Source: Candidatus Bathyarchaeia archaeon
Lineage (GTDB): Archaea; Thermoproteota; Bathyarchaeia; Bathyarchaeales; Bathycorpusculaceae
Direction of reading: 5' to 3'
Assembly (NCBI GenBank): GCA_049512075.1
Contig: JBEKXL010000003.1
Coordinates: 128,001-192,000, forward strand
DNA length: 64,000 nt
Made by a program: the position numbers and the translations under genes. Shown here piece by piece: positions 3,666 through 64,000 of the stretch (the first letter of the stretch is position 1; every line of letters starts with the position of its first letter). The notes beneath the pieces were generated by a model. That model ran no database searches. It was not told the DNA's origin and saw only the letters and a program-made list of their open reading frames with translations.

Positions 3666-4622
3666 TTGTCTGGACAAAATGCTGATGGGCCGAAGATAGT
3701 GGTCGTGGGCGCGGGGTTCGTTGGGACGGCCTTCGCGTATTCTCTTCTCATCCGCGGGTTGGCTTCTCAAATCGCCATTATAGACGTCAACAGGGAAAGG
3801 GCTGAGGGCGAGGTCATGGATTTGAACCATGGAATGGCGTTTGCTCAGCCTGTAAGAATATGGGCTGGCGACTATCCTGACTGTCAGGACGCTGACATCG
3901 TCGTCATCAGTGTGGACAGGGGGCAGAAGATTGAGCAGTCGCGGCTGGAGCTTGCTCGGGGAAACTTCGAGTTGATGAAACAAATCGTGCCCAACATCAC
4001 GAAGTACAATGACAAGTGCATCTTACTCGTCGTGACCAACCCGCTGGATGTTATGACCTACGCCGCTTTGAAGCTCAGCCGTTTTCCCAAAAACAGAGTA
4101 ATCGGATCTGGAACAATCCTGGACACTGCTAGGCTTCGATACCTGCTGGGTGAGCGTCTTCAGGTTGATCCCAGAAACGTCCACGCGTACATCATAGGAG
4201 AACACGGTGACAGCGAAGTGCCCGTGTGGAGCCTCGCAAACGTCGCGGGCATCAGGCTGAAGGACTATTACCCGTTGGCCAATGTGCCGTACGACCCGGT
4301 TGAGCTAGAAAACCTGTTCTTGAAGGTGAGGGGCGCCGGATACGAAATTATAAAGCGTAAGGGCAGGACTTTCTATGCGGTCGCCTTGGGAATGACGAAG
4401 ATCGTGGAGAGCATCGTTCGAAACGAGAACGCCGTGTCAACCGTGTCTTGTCTACTCGAGGATTATTATAGCGTGAGCGACGTCTGTCTGAGCGTTCCGG
4501 TCATTCTCAACCGAACCGGCATAAAAGAAACCATCAGGCTTCCACTCGATGAAAAGGAGATTGCTGATTTTCAGAAGTCAGCCACTATCATAAAAAACGT
4601 GGTGAACTCACTGGGCCTATGA
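3666..4622 (+). CDS. ldh: L-lactate dehydrogenase (LDH/MDH family)
   Basis: GAGFVG, TNPLD, GSGTILDTARLR, GEHGDS; Gln at the specificity position (GQK...SR). Confidence 0.85.
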   Translation: MSGQNADGPKIVVVGAGFVGTAFAYSLLIRGLASQIAIIDVNRERAEGEVMDLNHGMAFAQPVRIWAGDYPDCQDADIVVISVDRGQKIEQSRLELARGNFELMKQIVPNITKYNDKCILLVVTNPLDVMTYAALKLSRFPKNRVIGSGTILDTARLRYLLGERLQVDPRNVHAYIIGEHGDSEVPVWSLANVAGIRLKDYYPLANVPYDPVELENLFLKVRGAGYEIIKRKGRTFYAVALGMTKIVESIVRNENAVSTVSCLLEDYYSVSDVCLSVPVILNRTGIKETIRLPLDEKEIADFQKSATIIKNVVNSLGL

Positions 4623-37256: not shown

Positions 37257-37398
37257 TGGTGGGGTCGCGCGGATTTGAACCGCGGACCTACGGGTTTCTC
37301 CGTGACAGCTCCAGAACTTCGTCATTCCAGCGTTCTGGTCAGCAAACCCGTTTCTACATTCTGGAGCCCGTCGTCATACCTGCCTAGACTACGACCCC
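37257..37398 (-). tRNA. tRNA-Trp(CCA) with 65-nt intron at 37/38
   Basis: Acceptor GGGGTCG/CGACCCC, anticodon stem ACGGG/CCCGT, T-arm CGCGG-TTCAAAT-CCGCG, encoded ACCA; intron 37296-37360. Confidence 0.96.
37296..37360 (-). ncRNA. intron-encoded box C/D guide RNA of pre-tRNA-Trp
   Basis: D' CTGA, C' ATGACGA; guides AACGGGTTTG and AGTTCTGGAG are complementary to the two exon-intron junctions, as in known archaeal tRNA-Trp introns. Confidence 0.75.
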
Positions 37399-56768: not shown

Positions 56769-56922
56769 GACTCAGGCTGACTATGGTTCAGTTGTCTGCT
56801 GGAAAGGCGAAAAAAACGCCGTTTGGAATCAAAACTGTATTATATTAGGACGTAGGCAAATCAAAACATTAACAGCAATGCCTATATCGTCCGAGCGACA
56901 TTGTATTCTTGAGGAATGAAAA

Positions 56923-58140
56923 ATGAACATGACAGAAAGCAACATCATTGAGCAGTGGGCAAGCAAATATCCTGAAGTCGTCTCGTGGCTTGCTAAACTC
57001 CAAGTCAAGGAGTTGAACGCGCTGAGCCTTTACCACTTCTGTCAGTGGGCAAACAAAAACCCAACTGAACTGCTAGCGTTGAAAAGCAATCCTGCCAGCC
57101 TAGAGATTGAAAAGCTATTAGACGCTTATGTCGCTGCCAAGCTGTCAGACACTAACGCACTCAGGTTCTGGCGGGTCAATGCGGTCAAGAGTTTTTTCAA
57201 ATACTCCTACGTCAGCATAGCAAAAGCAGCGGGCAACATCCAGCTTGTGAAAACTAAAGACTACAACCGATTGTCTAAAGAAGGCTTAAAGCGTCTGTGG
57301 GACAACACCTACAACTTGCGCGATCGTGCGCTAATCACGTTTGTCTGCTCAACTGCCATTGCTAAGGAAACGCTTGGAAGCATCTGTTGGAAGCATTTAC
57401 AAGACGACTGGGAAACCGTTGAGCTGCCTTCTATCAATCTCCCACCTGAGATATTGAAAGGTCACGGCAGAGGCAAATATGCTGGCGTCCGACAAATCAC
57501 GTTTTTGACGCCTGAGAGCAAACGCGACCTGGTCAACTATAAGGTGTGGCTTGAGCAGAAGATTGGTCGCAAGGTCACGGCTGACGATCACATCTGGCTA
57601 GAAACCATGCGCCCTTATCGCCCAGTAAGTTATGATGCTTTAGGTTTTGCAATCTGGCAGTTGTCAAAGCGCACAGGTGTCCCCTTCAGCCTGCATGATG
57701 GCAGACGCTGGGTCACAACCGCGCTAGAGCAGGTTGCCATAAGCCAGAACTGGGCGCGCGTCCTCAGAGGTCGCAAGGTAGCAGGTGCAGAAAGTCCCTA
57801 TTCTCGACCAAACATTGAAGCGTTAAGAGCCAAGTTCAAGGAGGCCGTTGGGTTGTTGGAGTTTACAACTGTGACTGCCACACCGACAGTTCCTAAAGAA
57901 GTCGCCGACAAGTTGGCAGCGTTGGAGCAGGAGCAGACCGAGTTGAAAAGGCGATACGGCATAATGCGCGAGAGGACTAAGGGTTGGAAACAGGTTGCCA
58001 AAAATCGCAATGTTTGCAAGGACAGCAAAAACTGCCAACGGATTGTCAGCGAGGACGAGTTGCCTACGTTGTTGAGTGGTGGATGGCGCGTCGTTACTTG
58101 TCTGTCGTCTGGTAAAGTCGTTGTAAGCAACGAAACATGA
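56923..58140 (+). CDS. tyrosine recombinase/integrase (divergent)
   Basis: N-terminal core-binding domain (FCQW...P.ELL...VKSFF), RDRALI, HDGRR, catalytic Tyr in SPYSRP; C-terminal GW-containing domain. Confidence 0.88.
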   Translation: MNMTESNIIEQWASKYPEVVSWLAKLQVKELNALSLYHFCQWANKNPTELLALKSNPASLEIEKLLDAYVAAKLSDTNALRFWRVNAVKSFFKYSYVSIAKAAGNIQLVKTKDYNRLSKEGLKRLWDNTYNLRDRALITFVCSTAIAKETLGSICWKHLQDDWETVELPSINLPPEILKGHGRGKYAGVRQITFLTPESKRDLVNYKVWLEQKIGRKVTADDHIWLETMRPYRPVSYDALGFAIWQLSKRTGVPFSLHDGRRWVTTALEQVAISQNWARVLRGRKVAGAESPYSRPNIEALRAKFKEAVGLLEFTTVTATPTVPKEVADKLAALEQEQTELKRRYGIMRERTKGWKQVAKNRNVCKDSKNCQRIVSEDELPTLLSGGWRVVTCLSSGKVVVSNET

Positions 58141-58154
58141 TCTCCTTTTTTTGT

Positions 58155-58619
58155 TTAGATTTCAAAGATTTCAGAAGTCGGATGGAAAGGCTTCTTTTCT
58201 CTCTCTTCCTTCTTAGATGTTGTTTGTGGTTTTCGTTTTCTTGCTTTTTTTGTATATCCCCATTGAGCAATAGAGGTTTTCTTGTCGATGTGAAAGACTC
58301 TGAGAACATCTGTTTCAACAGCTTGTGGTTGCTTGCCTCTGACCACTAAAAACTTCTCAGTGTATTCATAGACCTCTCTCATACTGTTTTTCTCGTTGAT
58401 TATGATTTTGCGCTTTACTACTCCTTGACTAACCAATTCTCTGAGATGTTTGCTTAAAGCACCCGAAGACAATTTGGTAAGCGATTTGAGTTCCGACCAA
58501 CTTCTATGTTTCTTTTCATTTTCGTCATAAAATGCACGTATGATCTTTTCCTTTGTCCTCAGTGCCTGCTGTTGTTTTTCCGTGAGTTTGCCTTCACATT
58601 CGGTACCGATTAAAGGCAT
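58155..58619 (-). CDS. winged-helix transcriptional regulator
   Basis: WSELKSLTKLSSGALSKHLRELVSQGVV. Confidence 0.8.
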   Translation of the reverse strand: MPLIGTECEGKLTEKQQQALRTKEKIIRAFYDENEKKHRSWSELKSLTKLSSGALSKHLRELVSQGVVKRKIIINEKNSMREVYEYTEKFLVVRGKQPQAVETDVLRVFHIDKKTSIAQWGYTKKARKRKPQTTSKKEEREKKPFHPTSEIFEI

Positions 58620-59179: not shown

Positions 59180-59517
59180 GCGACAACTCAGAGTTTTCAA
59201 CAGAAAAAAGGTCACGTCGAGCCAAGATAGGCCTCCCAGGAACTGTAGAACTGGACGAACAGAAACCTACTGAAACCGATGCCGGCAAAGCAGCACTTAG
59301 GGAACTCATCAGGCAAGCAGCAGAGGACGGAGTAAACGCAGCACGCGCACGCATTACAGAACAACTTCCAACTGCTAAACCGTTAGCCCCTAAACCTGAA
59401 GTCATCGTTGAGCATGGCAGTGAAGTTCTCAAAAACCCTCCAGACACGGCACCTCCAGTCGAGAAGAAGGAAGAGACGCCGTTACATCAATGGATACGGA
59501 AAAAGCGAGGTGATTGA
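59176..59517 (+). CDS. hypothetical protein
   Basis: SD GGAGAGG; ATGA overlap with the previous gene. Confidence 0.7.
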   Translation: MSDNSEFSTEKRSRRAKIGLPGTVELDEQKPTETDAGKAALRELIRQAAEDGVNAARARITEQLPTAKPLAPKPEVIVEHGSEVLKNPPDTAPPVEKKEETPLHQWIRKKRGD

Positions 59518-60407
59518 GAATGGATAAGGAAACTATCAAGGACCTCTTAGAAGGGAAGTTAGTACGAGTAACAATGGTACCAGACAAGTTGACTGACCCG
59601 ATTGACAACTCAATCTTTACACTCAAGGACGTTTTGGAACATGGATATGTGAGTACAGGTGTGCCACTCGCAGTTGAAATAGCAAAAGAAATCGAGAAGC
59701 TCGCGGAATGGCAGACGACATTGCAGCAGAGATTTGATGCTGGCAAAATAGGTATCGACGTTGGCATCTGTCAAAACAAGAGAGTTAACGACCGCTACGA
59801 CGAGTTAGATCGCAATATCCACCACACGACACACACCGCTGAAATCCAAAACGAGAAAACAGGCAAGTTCTTGAAAGCGGAAATCACCATCAGCATTTTA
59901 CCAACTCTACCTGGCTTCTCATATAGCCCTGAGCAGGTTAGGCGATCATTGTCAAAACTGTTGCCATACACCGTAAAGCAGTTGCTGGACAACGGCGAGT
60001 TCAGCCTGTCAGACAAGGATTATTTGGAATACACCCAAGCAGAAGACAGGACAAAATGGCTCGCAGACCACGAGATAAAAGGAGGACAGTTTAATCTCTT
60101 CTGGATGAAGGACGCTGCTCAAGAACTGCCAAACGTTGAACCTGTATTTGCCGACGCAGTTGGCAGATTGCGGATGCTAGCCGTCCCAGAACAGGTTATC
60201 AACGACTTCAAAACTGTGACCTCATTGCTAACGGACGACCTGAAGCAAAACTACTGGCGACATTACAACTCACTGATGCTCGCCATATCTCGCATAGCAC
60301 TGGCCGAGGCAAGGAGAAATCCACTTGACCTCTCAGGCAACAGAGATTTGGCAGCAGAAGCGGACAAAACACTCGGCAAGATGGTCGAGAACCCAAGAGG
60401 TGAGTAA
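59514..60407 (+). CDS. hypothetical protein (297 aa)
   Basis: SD GAGGTGA; long ORF in operon. Confidence 0.8.
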   Translation: MRMDKETIKDLLEGKLVRVTMVPDKLTDPIDNSIFTLKDVLEHGYVSTGVPLAVEIAKEIEKLAEWQTTLQQRFDAGKIGIDVGICQNKRVNDRYDELDRNIHHTTHTAEIQNEKTGKFLKAEITISILPTLPGFSYSPEQVRRSLSKLLPYTVKQLLDNGEFSLSDKDYLEYTQAEDRTKWLADHEIKGGQFNLFWMKDAAQELPNVEPVFADAVGRLRMLAVPEQVINDFKTVTSLLTDDLKQNYWRHYNSLMLAISRIALAEARRNPLDLSGNRDLAAEADKTLGKMVENPRGE

Positions 60408-60707
60408 ATGGCAATAGCGGATTTAAGAGTGTATCTGAGAAGCCTACCGTTCTTTTATCCCAAAACCATGGGATGCAGCGGCATTAACCAAAGCGGTCAG
60501 ATAATGAATGCTGGTTCAGATGAAGTAGACGAAACCGTCTTTGTTGAACTACCTTCAGTTCCTGCTCAAGCTGGTCAAGTGCAAGCTGACTTTGAAAACC
60601 TAAGCGGATCGCCAACTGCAGAAACCGTGAAGAAGTGGCTCAGCAAACATACGCCTCCAATGACAGAAGCGCAACGGACGGCAGCGATAGCAGCGTTCAA
60701 CGTGTAA
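60408..60707 (+). CDS. hypothetical protein (99 aa)
   Basis: SD GAGGTGA; abuts previous stop. Confidence 0.75.
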   Translation: MAIADLRVYLRSLPFFYPKTMGCSGINQSGQIMNAGSDEVDETVFVELPSVPAQAGQVQADFENLSGSPTAETVKKWLSKHTPPMTEAQRTAAIAAFNV

Positions 60708-60773
60708 GCTCCCCGATGAGTTGGTGAAAATCCAACGAAACCTGCCGTTATGCACCCAACGGTAGGTCGGAGC
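60708..60773 (+). ncRNA. type I hammerhead ribozyme (U4C core variant)
   Basis: Stem I GCTCC/GGAGC; CCGATGA; stem II GTTGG/CCAAC; GAAA; stem III CCTGCCGTT/AACGGTAGG; GUC cleavage triplet 60766-60768. Confidence 0.85.
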
Positions 60774-60970
60774 GTGCGTGTAAATCGTCCGCGCATAAGC
60801 TCCCAGCTTCGACCAATGGGAGGCTTGCAGGGTAAACGGCTTCCCCTTGCAAGCTTCCAACTCACAGTTGCCTTATGATTGGGGGCAACGACCGTCGCTT
60901 AAGTGGGACGGCCTACCGGGACCTTGACGCGCCGCGCGCCAGACCCCTCCTAATAACGAGATGATGTAAG

Positions 60971-61144
60971 ATGCCTAAACCTCCACGCAACGATAAGGTT
61001 TTGTATTGGGACAGCGAGCGACACGAATACGTCCTGCTGCCGGCACCGCTTAAGGCACATTGGGGATTGAAGCGGAAACGAATAGCCCTGGTGCGCGGCA
61101 GGGAAAGAGCAGGAATGTGGAAAGATGTCAGAAAAGAAGCCTGA
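60971..61144 (+). CDS. 57-aa basic hypothetical protein
   Basis: Hand translation MPKPPRNDKVLYWDSERHEYVLLPAPLKAHWGLKRKRIALVRGRERAGMWKDVRKEA; fills a gap in the operon. Confidence 0.5.
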   Translation: MPKPPRNDKVLYWDSERHEYVLLPAPLKAHWGLKRKRIALVRGRERAGMWKDVRKEA

Positions 61145-61217
61145 TTGGAAGCCTAAGTCACCATCAAGAAAGAAGTGGATGGAAAACGGGAAAGACTAAA
61201 ACGGAGGCGAATGTAAA

Positions 61218-61622
61218 ATGAAGAATGAGGAAACGTTGCTACCTAGAGCCTGTCCATTGTATCTTGAACTGTGTCCTTACGACCTGAAAAGACTAGGCGA
61301 ACCAAGACTGGAACAAGGCAGATGCCCAGTGCCAAGCTTGATCACCAAGAACATTGTTGAAGCAGGAGCAAAGGAAGACCCTAAACAAATGGTTTATGTT
61401 ACTTGCCCCGAAGTTTATCGACAAAACAAAAACGCTATTGACGACCCAACTCAAGGAATAGGAGGCGTTGTGTGTTATCGTCCTTCCGATCTTACAACCG
61501 ACTTCCGCGATTGCCAATTTTACAGCGAGTGGTTTTGCAAGTACAGGGGCAAGAAACCGAAACCGTACAAAGCACCACCTAAGAAACAAGAGTTGGTTCA
61601 TAAGAGCAGGTTAGAGAAATGA
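61218..61622 (+). CDS. Cys-rich hypothetical protein
   Basis: SD GGAGG; seven Cys including several CP; overlaps the ATPase start. Confidence 0.7.
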   Translation: MKNEETLLPRACPLYLELCPYDLKRLGEPRLEQGRCPVPSLITKNIVEAGAKEDPKQMVYVTCPEVYRQNKNAIDDPTQGIGGVVCYRPSDLTTDFRDCQFYSEWFCKYRGKKPKPYKAPPKKQELVHKSRLEK

Positions 61623-62977
61623 AGCGTTTTACTGATAAAGACTTCGCGCGCGCCATAGTAGTTTATCGAGAAGTCGCTATGGCAAAGAAGAGAGTCAAAC
61701 GAACGCCAGGCGAGCTGATTAACAAAACCCTTTTTGAACAGGTCGAAGACGGCAAATATCTAGGCGTTGACCTCTCCGAGTTACAGTTTATCACAGGCAA
61801 GGAAGGGCCGCTAACCAAGTGGGAGACTGATGACCTTGACTACCTTCCCCTCCCGCGCCTTCCATGGCGAAGGCTTCACCCACTCTGCATAACGGAAGAA
61901 AGTGCGGAACAACTCTACACAGATGTTAGGCGTTTCATCTACGACCACATCGACTTCTCCAAAGACGTTGAATACGACCTCTGCGCTTCATGGGTTCTGC
62001 ACACTTGGAGATTGGAAAACTGGAACGTCACACCCTACCTGTCCTTCTTTGGCCCACCAGCAAGCGGCAAGACGTGGGCGATGGAAGTGTTAGCGGCGTT
62101 GTCGTTTAGGTCGCTGTTAGCCGCTATGTCGCCAGCCTCACTCTACTACGCCACGCAAGAATGGCATCCCACCTGCTTCCTTGACGAGACAGAGATGTAT
62201 TTGAGAGGGGAAGAGAAGGCCGACATCCTCAACTATCTGAACATGGGCTACCGGCGCGGGCAAGTGGTAATAAGGACAACAGAGGATAAGGACGGCTCAC
62301 GCTCACCTGTAATGTTTGACGTTTTCGGGCCTAAGTGCCTTGCTGGAACCAAAGAACTATTCGACACCTTGAAGTCTCGCAGCTTCACTTTTACCATGAG
62401 CAGGAAGACGCGCGAGATTAAGATGACAATCGATGAGGACGCCATTCTCCAACTTAGAAACAGGTTGTTCTCGTACAGGGTCAGGCAGCTAGCGGCAAAC
62501 AGAAATCTCATTCTGTCCGCTGACACTTTCCTAAACCAAATCAGAGACGGCAGACTACGAGAGTTGTTTCACCCGCTAATCTCCTGCTGCCCTCAATCTG
62601 TTATTCCCCTGCTTGTCGAATATGCCGTACAACTAGACACCGAGAAAGAGCAGGAGGAAGCTCTAAGTTTGGAAGCGAGGGTTTTCAATGCTGTTCTAAA
62701 GGCTCGGCAACTCAACGAAGACTTTATTCCGCTAAAGGCCGTTGCTGAAATTGTGAACGAGAACCTCCCACTGAAGGAAGGTTTTAGCAATCGCGCCATA
62801 GGCACATACGTTGCAAAACTAGGCTTCAAGAAACAAATCCATAAGAACCGTGCGCACGTTGTCTGGGACGAGAAACTCATCACTCGCCTTGCCAAACGCT
62901 ATCCAATCGACAAAGCAGATGATAGCCCTCCTGAACCTGAACCGTACGACCATTACGCTCACCCTCCTCAGACGTGA
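61619..62977 (+). CDS. P-loop ATPase, putative replication helicase-like protein of the element
   Basis: Walker A GPPASGKT, Walker B CFLDE, LNMGYRRG, FGPK, LKSR arginine finger; wHTH-like C-terminus. Confidence 0.8.
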   Translation: MKRFTDKDFARAIVVYREVAMAKKRVKRTPGELINKTLFEQVEDGKYLGVDLSELQFITGKEGPLTKWETDDLDYLPLPRLPWRRLHPLCITEESAEQLYTDVRRFIYDHIDFSKDVEYDLCASWVLHTWRLENWNVTPYLSFFGPPASGKTWAMEVLAALSFRSLLAAMSPASLYYATQEWHPTCFLDETEMYLRGEEKADILNYLNMGYRRGQVVIRTTEDKDGSRSPVMFDVFGPKCLAGTKELFDTLKSRSFTFTMSRKTREIKMTIDEDAILQLRNRLFSYRVRQLAANRNLILSADTFLNQIRDGRLRELFHPLISCCPQSVIPLLVEYAVQLDTEKEQEEALSLEARVFNAVLKARQLNEDFIPLKAVAEIVNENLPLKEGFSNRAIGTYVAKLGFKKQIHKNRAHVVWDEKLITRLAKRYPIDKADDSPPEPEPYDHYAHPPQT

Positions 62978-63164
62978 AGACGTGATAGACGTGGTAGCAG
63001 GAACCATACCCCCCTTGCAATACGCGAATACGTGATCATCAAGTGAGTGAGTTTTATAAGATTTTTATTTATCTCTTCAAATCATCCTTCTTTTGCTGAC
63101 AGAACAACGGCACAGCAGCAGGGTATATGGTCTCCTGTTCCCCGTCTTTCACGTCTTCGCGTCT
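62970..63164. repeat. origin-like ~44-bp imperfect inverted repeat around an AT-rich core
   Basis: AGACGTGAAGACGTGATAGACGTGGTAGCAGGAACCATACCC vs reverse complement of 63121-63164 AGACGCGAAGACGTGAAAGACGGGGAACAGGAGACCATATACCC. Confidence 0.75.
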
Positions 63165-63180
63165 CACTAGCGACCAACAG

Positions 63181-63869
63181 CGAACTTGCCATGCGGGAGT
63201 ATCCGAAACGTCGAACCTGCAATCTGCCCGATTTCTACCTGCTTTGACAAGTTGATGATGAGTTCGAAGCGAACTGCCAACATCGAACTTGGAGTATCCA
63301 ATGGGCGGCTTTCGAACTTCAATCTGCCCAAAACATCCCTGCTTTACTGCCAATCTCCTCAAATCATCCTTGTTATCTGCCCATTTTATCCTTACCGAAG
63401 TGTAGGTGTGCTGAACAACAGGAGATGCCCATTTCATCCTTGCATTGGCGTTTGTGGGACGTTTCAGGCAGCAGGATTGAGCGTCGAACTGGGACGAATA
63501 ATGTAAAATACGCCCAAATCGTCCTTGTTTTCGGAAATCGGGCGTGTCAAGCGACTGTAAAAATCTTGGAAGTCGAACCTCAAAACTCAACCTAACCGCG
63601 GTAGGTCGCCGCTGCTTTGTACTTATTGTGCTTTTCCGAAATCCAGTCGAAAAATACACCATCATTTCCCATGCAAGCGTCTAGGCGTCGAACTGTAGCG
63701 GAAAGGGTCGAACTGGGGAGATTTCGAAGCGAACTGGGCGAACTAGGAAAGAATCTGGGAGATTGCTTTTTCATTGTTTCCTGCTGTCTCCCATGCCATC
63801 ATCGGATACTCACCTAAAACTCGTCTATCCTCCCCTGCTTGCAGATTTGACTCTCGAACTGGGGAGATT
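63181..63869 (+). repeat. dispersed CGAAC(T/C) repeat field
   Basis: 12 same-strand copies; longer exact repeats TCGAACTGGGGAGATT and TTCGAAGCGAACTG each occur twice. Confidence 0.75.
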
Positions 63870-64000
63870 AAGGTGTTCAGCAGCGAGACATTCACTTTTC
63901 CATCAAAATTCCTGCACCTTGCGTTCTTTAAATGGTGTCTCCCCTGCTGAAGGTCGAGATCGCTGTTGAACTGTCAACTGCTAAAGCGTCGCCATGCTAG

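Follow-up and report, generated by a model that had tools for sequence, protein, structure and literature searches.

The locus analysed here raises two questions: whether 66 nt (60708–60773, + strand), which had been predicted to form a type I hammerhead ribozyme inside an operon of an archaeal mobile element, belong to this class in spite of one change in the core, and, if so, whether they cut the RNA of that operon. The host is a Bathyarchaeia archaeon from peat, and the window is the whole stretch of DNA analysed, 64 000 nt in length. Hammerheads of archaea, of archaeal viruses and of prophages with linked integrases have been in the literature since 2011, and passages of PMC3088659 count 'at least three representatives' in archaea, in agreement with the original prediction that few archaeal examples are reported. 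A 2017 review (de la Pena et al., PMC6155905) describes the biological role of prokaryotic hammerheads, in the passages drawn on here, as an open question.

Architecture and predicted fold of the motif

Direct reading of the sequence gives a complete type I hammerhead at 60708–60773 (+ strand), at the coordinates originally predicted. Its parts are the following.

60708–60773, + strand: hammerhead proper; stems I, II and III of 5, 5 and 10 bp; predicted scission between 60768 and 60769
60700–60707, + strand: 5' strand of the outer extension of stem I; 60700–60706 pairs with 60775–60781 (7 bp), with A60707/G60774 as internal loop, in the minimum free energy (MFE) fold
60708–60712 and 60769–60773, + strand: stem I, GCUCC/GGAGC, 5 bp, read directly
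60713–60719, + strand: core CCGAUGA (C3 C4 G5 A6 U7 G8 A9), with U4C at 60714
60720–60724, 60725–60731 and 60732–60736, + strand: stem II, GUUGG/CCAAC, 5 bp, closed by the 7-nt loop UGAAAAU
60737–60739, + strand: G12 A13 A14 (GAA), read directly
60740–60749, 60750–60757 and 60758–60767, + strand: stem III, A followed by CCUGCCGUU, the 8-nt loop AUGCACCC, and AACGGUAGG followed by U
60768, + strand: C17, the cleavage nucleotide of a GUC site

The elements follow one another in the order stem I, core, stem II, GAA, stem III, H17 and stem I, so that three helices surround the junction and helix I is open-ended. Ten of the 11 conserved core nucleotides are shared with the type I class: the expected letters stand at C60713, G60715, A60716, G60718, A60719, G60737, A60738 and A60739 (U60717 is the free position N7), and C replaces the expected U at 60714. 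The pairs that border the junction are also present (C60712–G60769, or 1.1–2.1; G60720–C60736, or 10.1–11.1; A60740–U60767, or 15.1–16.1). Stem III had been described as 9 bp long; this length is right if A15.1–U16.1 is left out, and it becomes 10 bp, one of them G–U, once that pair is counted. Cleavage after 60768, as originally proposed, is what the motif predicts, C17 being 60768.

The MFE fold of 60700–60785 is the hammerhead three-way junction with the 7-bp outer helix beyond the A/G mismatch (−32.3 kcal/mol, z = −5.07; none of 200 shuffled sequences folded as well). A type I descriptor with permissive settings (core C[UC]GANGA; at least 4, 4 and 4 bp in the stems), run on both strands of the 2 725 246-base genome, found 60708–60773 and nothing else, and it had no match in 10 genomes simulated with an order-3 Markov model plus the reversed genome (∼30 Mb, both strands). 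Because the fold is significant, the descriptor match unique and the simulated and reversed genomes empty, the motif lies far beyond chance expectation. There is a single hammerhead in the window and in the genome, so no pair or array of hammerheads brackets a gene here.

Rfam and class-specific covariance models

Rfam was largely silent. At gathering scores, a search of the whole window returned a 5S rRNA and one tRNA only and no hammerhead; the families of this ribozyme class in clan CL00010 (Hammerhead_1, RF00163; Hammerhead_3, RF00008; Hammerhead_II; HH9; HH10; RAGATH-1-hammerhead) all stayed below theirs. At E ≤ 10 the sole match in 60600–61000 was to Hammerhead_3, with 14.9 bits against a cut-off of 48.5 and in a permuted register, and a permissive scan of 60950–61450 gave nothing. 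However, the same library missed canonical members of the class in seven viral loci (E ≤ 0.1), and none of the U4C hammerheads listed below reached a gathering score. Since the library misses both U4C and canonical class members, its failure is weak evidence against the motif; judged by these comparisons, it reflects the coverage of the models more than the sequence.

Relatives were gathered with a pattern that fixed the core and a 4-bp YYRR stem II and left stems I and III free. With the canonical core, at least 120 stretches of viral contigs matched, and 100 of the 120 loci listed hold a well-formed hammerhead, mostly of type I. Seventy-three canonical-core viral type I sequences were aligned with a single-sequence covariance model (R1), and a class model (R2) was derived from these 73, the 60708–60773 motif being excluded. 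R2 scores 60702–60778 at 59.2 bits (rough E = 2.6e-17 in 64 kb) over positions 1–67 of 67 and places it on the outer helix and internal loop of the class; the runner-up in the window has 10.1 bits, and the match is unique in its own genome. A check with hammerhead models thus has a double outcome, negative for the Rfam models at gathering score and positive for the class model. Direct reading, MFE fold, descriptor and R2 score agree on the hammerhead identity and type I topology originally proposed.

The structure of the class itself is supported by covariation. In the 73-sequence alignment, 95.2% of cells are paired compared with 64.4% in shuffled alignments and 29–36% when the 3' partners are slid by 1–3 columns, and both sides have changed in 24 of 27 pairs; these figures are to be read in the knowledge that the alignment was fitted to the structure and that its sequences were picked by a core-plus-stem-II pattern. 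Column counts over the 61 distinct sequences give the class several hallmarks: an unpaired A 5' of stem I in 47 of the 47 rows with a letter there, usually after UA; a 7-nt loop 2, UGARAUU (U in 57/61, G in 59/61, A in 56/61, R in 60/60, A in 58/60, any nucleotide, U in 51/60); an unpaired A or G directly after stem I; and C as the cleavage nucleotide in 52 of 61 rows. At these columns the motif has UAA, UGAAAAU and G, and no descriptor had required any of the three. Passages of PMC6155905 state that type I ribozymes require, for fast cleavage, that helix I be extended through an internal loop and that this extension match loop II. At the level of sequence, the peripheral elements for a tertiary contact between stem I and loop 2 are present (outer helix, A/G internal loop, UGAAAAU).

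We consider it very probable, on this sequence evidence, that 60708–60773 is a true hammerhead-class RNA, and by structural comparison it groups with the type I hammerheads so abundant in phages and prophages, which combine a 5-bp stem I and a 5-bp stem II with a stem III that varies. A sample of 150 other genomes of the phylum gave two matches to R2, a strong canonical hammerhead in G076 (53 bits) and a weak one in G073 (22 bits); as far as these matches indicate, the type I class does occur in this phylum of archaea but is uncommon there. The only R1 match in 150 genomes of the same family (G491) was rejected as a chance resemblance, with the core CAGAGAA and a position inside a 705-aa coding frame.

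C at core position 4

The C read at 60714 bears out the U4C deviation originally noted, and because of it the motif is filed as a core variant and not as a consensus member. A viroid hammerhead with the same single core change is reportedly of type III and belongs to a plant pathogen RNA. Passages of PMC3088659 state that U4C 'considerably decreases activity in vitro' and that the viroid variant stays infectious though it cuts poorly in vitro (citing Ambros and Flores 1998); unlike that ribozyme, the one described here is of type I and is encoded in the DNA of a prokaryotic element. The same source (Perreault et al. 2011) reports, in its passages on alignment, that sequences with any core mutation were discarded. 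Given that U4 belongs to the strict consensus and that U4C lowers activity in vitro, the ribozyme at 60708–60773 may be slow or dead.

With C at position 4, the search pattern matches at least 119 stretches in genome_contigs, nine of the 119 matches listed being well-formed hammerheads, and 12 stretches in viral contigs, where six are well-formed; the five strong ones among these comprise two distinct sequences. The U4C hammerheads whose stems are intact (L153, L156, L160, L211, L220, L226, L228 and L244 in genome_contigs; L252, L254, L255, L256 and L259 in viral_contigs) come from bacteria, archaea and viruses, number at least 10 distinct sequences and score 35–62 bits with R2. Pairing in this set is 96.4% compared with 63.7% after shuffling, in an alignment fitted to the structure and with a pattern that fixed the core and part of stem II. 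Three copies (L252, L254 and L259) lie inside arrays of canonical hammerheads, and L252 has nearly the same sequence as a canonical one (L261). Scans of the viral contigs with other core changes gave no stretches for G5A, four stretches and no hammerhead for A6G, and four stretches and no convincing hammerhead for G8A. Since U4C is the only one of the four core changes tested that is seen with an intact ribozyme, C4 appears to be tolerated. It is nevertheless rare, with at most six cases in the viral collection against at least 100 canonical ones. The case for tolerance of U4C in natural hammerheads comes from small numbers and from patterns in which the other core positions, and stem II in part, were fixed.

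The closest archaeal match is L156, from an archaeal MAG, in which stem I and loop 2 are those of 60708–60773 and stem II differs by two compensatory pairs. In L156 (titled Nitrososphaeria archaeon), hammerheads at 2–57 and 1049–1108, one U4C and the other with the core CUGACGA, bracket a 286-aa ORF, and the second lies just 5' of a 239-aa ORF. An HxK-type motif seen by eye suggests that the latter may encode a PLD/nuclease-like protein. In L228, a U4C hammerhead (with a sub-threshold match to RAGATH-1-hammerhead, 35.6 bits) lies ∼4 kb from a match to the IscB-associated HEARO RNA, which is cut by the locus end (69.4 bits; the two at 1–183 and 4226–4304).

An integrated element and its operon

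The surroundings of the motif are listed below.

56837–56845: left 9-bp direct repeat GTATTATAT, element border; the right copy is at 66163–66171 in contig C3, beyond the window
56923–58140, + strand: 405-aa integrase-like gene (weak PHROG match, phrog_1, E = 0.0023)
58155–58619, − strand: gene for a 154-aa winged-helix regulator, divergent from the operon (Pfam HTH_34, HTH_5 and HxlR, below curated cut-offs, E from 1e-4 to 8e-3)
59514–60407, + strand: 297-aa orphan gene (ORF; one homologue, P0002, with 75% identity, among 5.8 billion proteins)
60408–60707, + strand: 99-aa gene (ORF; TAA stop at 60705–60707; 52%-identical homologue in L043)
60708–61199, + strand: cassette of ∼0.5 kb with hammerhead, GC-rich leader and small ORFs; right edge approximate
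60971–61144, + strand: p57, a 57-aa basic ORF (56-aa homologue P0066, 69% identity, E = 2e-18)
61126–61221, + strand: short ORF of uncertain gene status, with no homologue found; its TGA overlaps the ATG of the 134-aa gene
61218–61622, + strand: 134-aa gene, 3' of the cassette (in L043, a homologue of 38% identity follows the 99-aa homologue directly)
61619–62977, + strand: gene for a 452-aa P-loop replication protein, last of the operon; corresponds to the helicase part of primase-helicases

Three congeneric genomes (G459, G526 and G488) have the flanks at 56843 and 66163 contiguous. From these empty sites and from the presence of GTATTATAT at both ends it follows that the motif lies inside an integrated element of ∼9.3 kb, which runs past the window end; the mobile-element setting originally proposed is thereby supported. 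A repeat search within the window detected no att sites, and the borders were set from the empty sites. The insertion is between a pelota gene, which has 97% identity to one assigned to a Candidatus Bathyarchaeia MAG, and the next host gene, with no tRNA gene at the junction; that host gene, read by eye, is presumably the gene for the TATA-binding protein. Homologues of the 405-aa integrase-like protein (44–57% identity) adjoin related helicase genes in L054, L070, L081 and L059. The operon on the + strand is tight, with gene starts and stops that touch or overlap.

Longer homologues of the 452-aa protein carry PF09250, PF08708 and PF12307, and its Walker A motif, GPPASGKT, is invariant in alignment A2. 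Two further homologues are encoded in the same genome (G000:C9:40468–41502, 39% identity; G000:C4:69073–69729, 29%), presumably in other integrated elements, and the genome-wide descriptor scan found no hammerhead in either region. Single-protein queries detected no viral contig with a 452-aa homologue. The region 3' of the replication gene (63000–64000) contains imperfect direct repeats (families D2–D5 and D8; 16–34 nt) and no convincing ORF, and these repeats could form an origin-like or regulatory region of the element. Elsewhere the window holds a family B polymerase-like ORF and the 5S rRNA. The Rfam tRNA match, at 37260–37398 (− strand), is 139 nt long (50 bits), and ARAGORN found no tRNA in the window; the tRNA probably contains an intron.

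The cassette and its distribution

Metagenome contig L043 represents a related element, with a 70%-identical 452-aa protein, that lacks the cassette: the gap between the 99-aa and 134-aa genes is 14 nt there and 510 nt here. The cassette recurs, as a diverged copy, in sequencing run X8. Insertion here and loss in L043 are, from these sequences, equally good readings of the difference. No second copy of the cassette was found in its own genome, comparison of its DNA with 400 genomes of the phylum gave chance matches of 23–31 nt only, and the only terminal repeat seen was a trivial TAA. Nor did 60950–61450 or the rest of the window contain a second hammerhead or another self-cleaving family. For p57, no Pfam or PHROG family and no Atlas lead was found, and a p57-guided search returned no locus in genome_contigs or viral_contigs; P0067 (E = 2.6e-4), a 793-aa repeat protein, was judged a spurious homologue.

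The region is present in assemblies of six peat or wetland runs, and the X5 and X6 pieces across the motif are identical; none of the runs listed for the region is an RNA run. The X8 copy, from freshwater sediment and another study, has 13 substitutions and 6 indels over 60657–60915. Within the 66-nt motif there are three substitutions, two of them in loop 2 (60730 and 60731) and the third in loop 3 (60752); the 51 stem or core positions are unchanged and C4 is kept. If changes fell at random across the motif, the chance that all would hit loops is (15/66)^3, or about 0.012. The pattern is weak evidence that fits constraint on the fold, in a region whose flanking genes differ by 0.4–3%. X8 is the only diverged orthologue and changes loops only; the covariation seen is thus that of the class, not of true orthologues. 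The most diverged parts in X8 (about 10%) are the leader at 60818–60876 and the first 121 nt of the p57 ORF. Run X7 has neither a contig over 60670–61117 nor a joint across it.

Related elements, to which the original prediction had looked for support, did not provide it: among the loci that encode a homologue of the 452-aa protein, 30 from genomes and 79 from metagenomes, none yielded a convincing hammerhead, only chance matches with 3-bp stems.

A stop codon beside stem I

Stem I begins at the first base after the TAA (60705–60707) of the 99-aa gene, so that this TAA is the unpaired UAA beside stem I. The arrangement is common in the class. Among 63 distinct members (loci L260–L359 of the viral contigs, alignment A5), an upstream frame of 50 or more codons ends 6 nt before C3 in 20 and 5 nt before it in 11; in nine the core UGA is itself the stop, and other offsets occur 1–3 times each. 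The offset of the 99-aa gene, 6 nt, is thus the modal value of the class. By comparison, of all the TAA triplets that these loci contain, 8.2% terminate a frame of 50 codons or more. These counts suggest that, in the phage type I class, the conserved UAA next to stem I often serves as a stop codon as well, and none of the papers listed by a title and abstract search describes such abutment in this class. According to the original prediction, a ribosome terminating on stem I could modulate cleavage; a stop 5–6 nt before C3 in 31 of 63 class members, as here, lends that idea indirect support.

A competing hairpin directly downstream

Directly 3' of the cleavage site the RNA can adopt a second structure.

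60769–60803, + strand: alternative hairpin, GGAGCGUGCGUG paired with CGCGCAU-AA-GCUCC, 12 bp, which sequesters the 3' strand of stem I

Its 3' arm, 60790–60803, is a downstream copy of the 5' strand of stem I, the sequence UAAGCUCC occurring twice. In 60700–60810 the fold with this hairpin has −40.1 kcal/mol compared with −38.2 for the hammerhead fold, and in 60600–61000 the pair probability is 0.95 for the hairpin and 0.03 for stem I, with an energy model that ignores tertiary stabilization. The hairpin is unchanged in X8. Since it wins at predicted equilibrium in the longer transcript, cleavage must be co-transcriptional or rely on tertiary contacts, and the modelled dominance of the hairpin counts partly against constitutive activity.

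Further downstream, the original suggestion that the ribozyme matures a structured RNA that follows is weak. The structure of 60769–60975 is not significant (z = −1.54; 16 of 200 shuffled sequences folded as well), no Rfam family matches it, and it includes the part most diverged in X8, where a 14-bp hairpin (60819–60858) has indels in both arms and no clear compensation.

Does the motif cut the operon RNA?

The explanation we favour, with moderate confidence, is that 60708–60773 is a genuine type I hammerhead with a U4C core that cuts the operon RNA of the element. Cleavage at a biologically useful rate is rather probable as judged from the sequence, and cutting the polycistronic RNA would be, by analogy with what has been proposed for prophage hammerheads, the most plausible role. 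The motif has the sense orientation within the + strand operon, with which it would be transcribed. Once RNA has been made to about 60781, the three-way junction would fold, aided by the contact between loop 2 and the internal loop of stem I, and self-cleavage after C60768 would leave a 2',3'-cyclic phosphate and a 5'-OH. The upstream message, with the genes through the TAA of the 99-aa gene, would then end in stem-loops II and III, and the downstream message would comprise p57, the 134-aa gene and the gene for the 452-aa replication protein. Refolding of the new downstream 5' end into the 12-bp hairpin at 60769–60803 would make the cut irreversible and cap that end. Ribosomes that terminate at the end of the 99-aa gene have to clear its stop codon before the ribozyme can fold, so that cleavage is probably tied to translation of that gene.

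A less probable but serious contender is an inactive or nearly inactive relic: a canonical phage-type hammerhead would have arrived with the cassette and been disabled by U4C, its structure surviving as recent debris or as a stable 3' stem-loop cluster, a terminator-like element, for the upstream message. The loss of activity in vitro attributed to U4C (PMC3088659, in passages), the equilibrium preference for the competing hairpin, and the occurrence of the motif as a single copy that is absent from related elements all fit such decay. However, decay would hardly be expected to leave every other core and peripheral hallmark intact or to confine the changes in the diverged X8 copy to loops. It also sits poorly with the U4C hammerheads with perfect stems in at least 10 distinct sequences from bacteria, archaea and viruses, some inside canonical arrays, with the failure to find G5A, A6G or G8A hammerheads in the viral contigs, and with the infectivity of the U4C viroid variant (PMC3088659, in passages). 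That the hammerhead serves the life cycle of the cassette itself, as a mobile or RNA-processed module with p57 that is excised and perhaps ligated or circularized, seems improbable. The cassette is present here and in X8 and missing from L043, where the flanking genes are 14 nt apart, p57 has a homologue elsewhere (69% identity), and the cassette centre diverges faster than its flanks. Yet deletion in L043 reads equally well, there is one ribozyme only, with no second in 60950–61450 or the rest of the window, neither its own genome nor a set of 400 from the phylum contains another copy, and terminal repeats beyond the trivial TAA are lacking.

It is highly improbable that the motif is an ordinary cluster of intergenic hairpins in which the hammerhead consensus appears by accident. 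Hammerhead-like motifs do arise at random in large databases, as passages of PMC3088659 point out, and nothing here reached an Rfam threshold; against this stand the absence of descriptor matches in about 30 Mb of simulated and reversed sequence (both strands), an R2 score of 59.2 bits to which peripheral elements outside any descriptor contribute, and L156, with its common stem I and loop 2 and compensatory changes in stem II.

Relation to known hammerheads

The type I hammerheads of phages, prophages and bacterial mobile elements (PMC3088659; PMC6155905) share with the motif the topology, a 5-bp stem II, a loop of the UGARAUU type, the UAA, the outer helix and the GUC site. The setting is alike too, in an integrase-bearing integrated element with a small non-conserved ORF adjoining; prophage hammerheads linked to integrases and small non-conserved ORFs beside hammerheads are mentioned in passages of both sources. 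The present ribozyme differs in C4, in its archaeal host, in being a single copy and not an array, in an unusually long stem III (10 bp) and in the competing hairpin directly 3'. The 'HHphage' of haloviruses HF1/HF2, compared here by its description in passages of PMC3088659, likewise belongs to an archaeal mobile genome and precedes replication-type genes, in that case within a polycistronic early transcript. In HF1/HF2 it is 13 nt before the start of the helicase gene, whereas here the next ORF is about 200 nt downstream; it has short insertions near C3 and stem I and is discussed as a high-salt variant, whereas the change here is U4C.

With archaeal, haloviral (ahead of a helicase), prophage-integrase and small-ORF hammerheads already in print, the kind is known. 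A literature search found, by title and abstract, no paper that links hammerheads with Bathyarchaeia, and no hammerhead paper containing the string CCGAUGAG. What appears to be new, as far as sequence comparison goes, is the Bathyarchaeia as a host lineage for a phage-type type I hammerhead, the recurrent U4C in a prokaryotic ribozyme of type I (PMC3088659 may already include such rows, or the class consensus, in its supplementary alignments) and the cassette context.

Implications

The recurrence of U4C with otherwise intact ribozymes means that strict-consensus searches and Rfam thresholds would under-count such hammerheads. The stop codon that abuts about half of the 63 class members is a testable hint of translation-coupled cleavage, and the locus offers a clean natural test bed, with one ribozyme, a tight operon, exact placement of the stop codon and a sister element without the cassette. 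More speculatively, and in our view unlikely, U4C hammerheads could be a selected and distinct subclass of slow or conditional cutters, here working as a switch gated by ribosome release, with the hairpin at 60769–60803 as a second, kinetic gate, in a portable 'cut-here' cassette for gene ends. If that were true, a hammerhead and a small ORF would travel together and insert at the ends of genes, where they would provide a translation-coupled switch in RNA processing.
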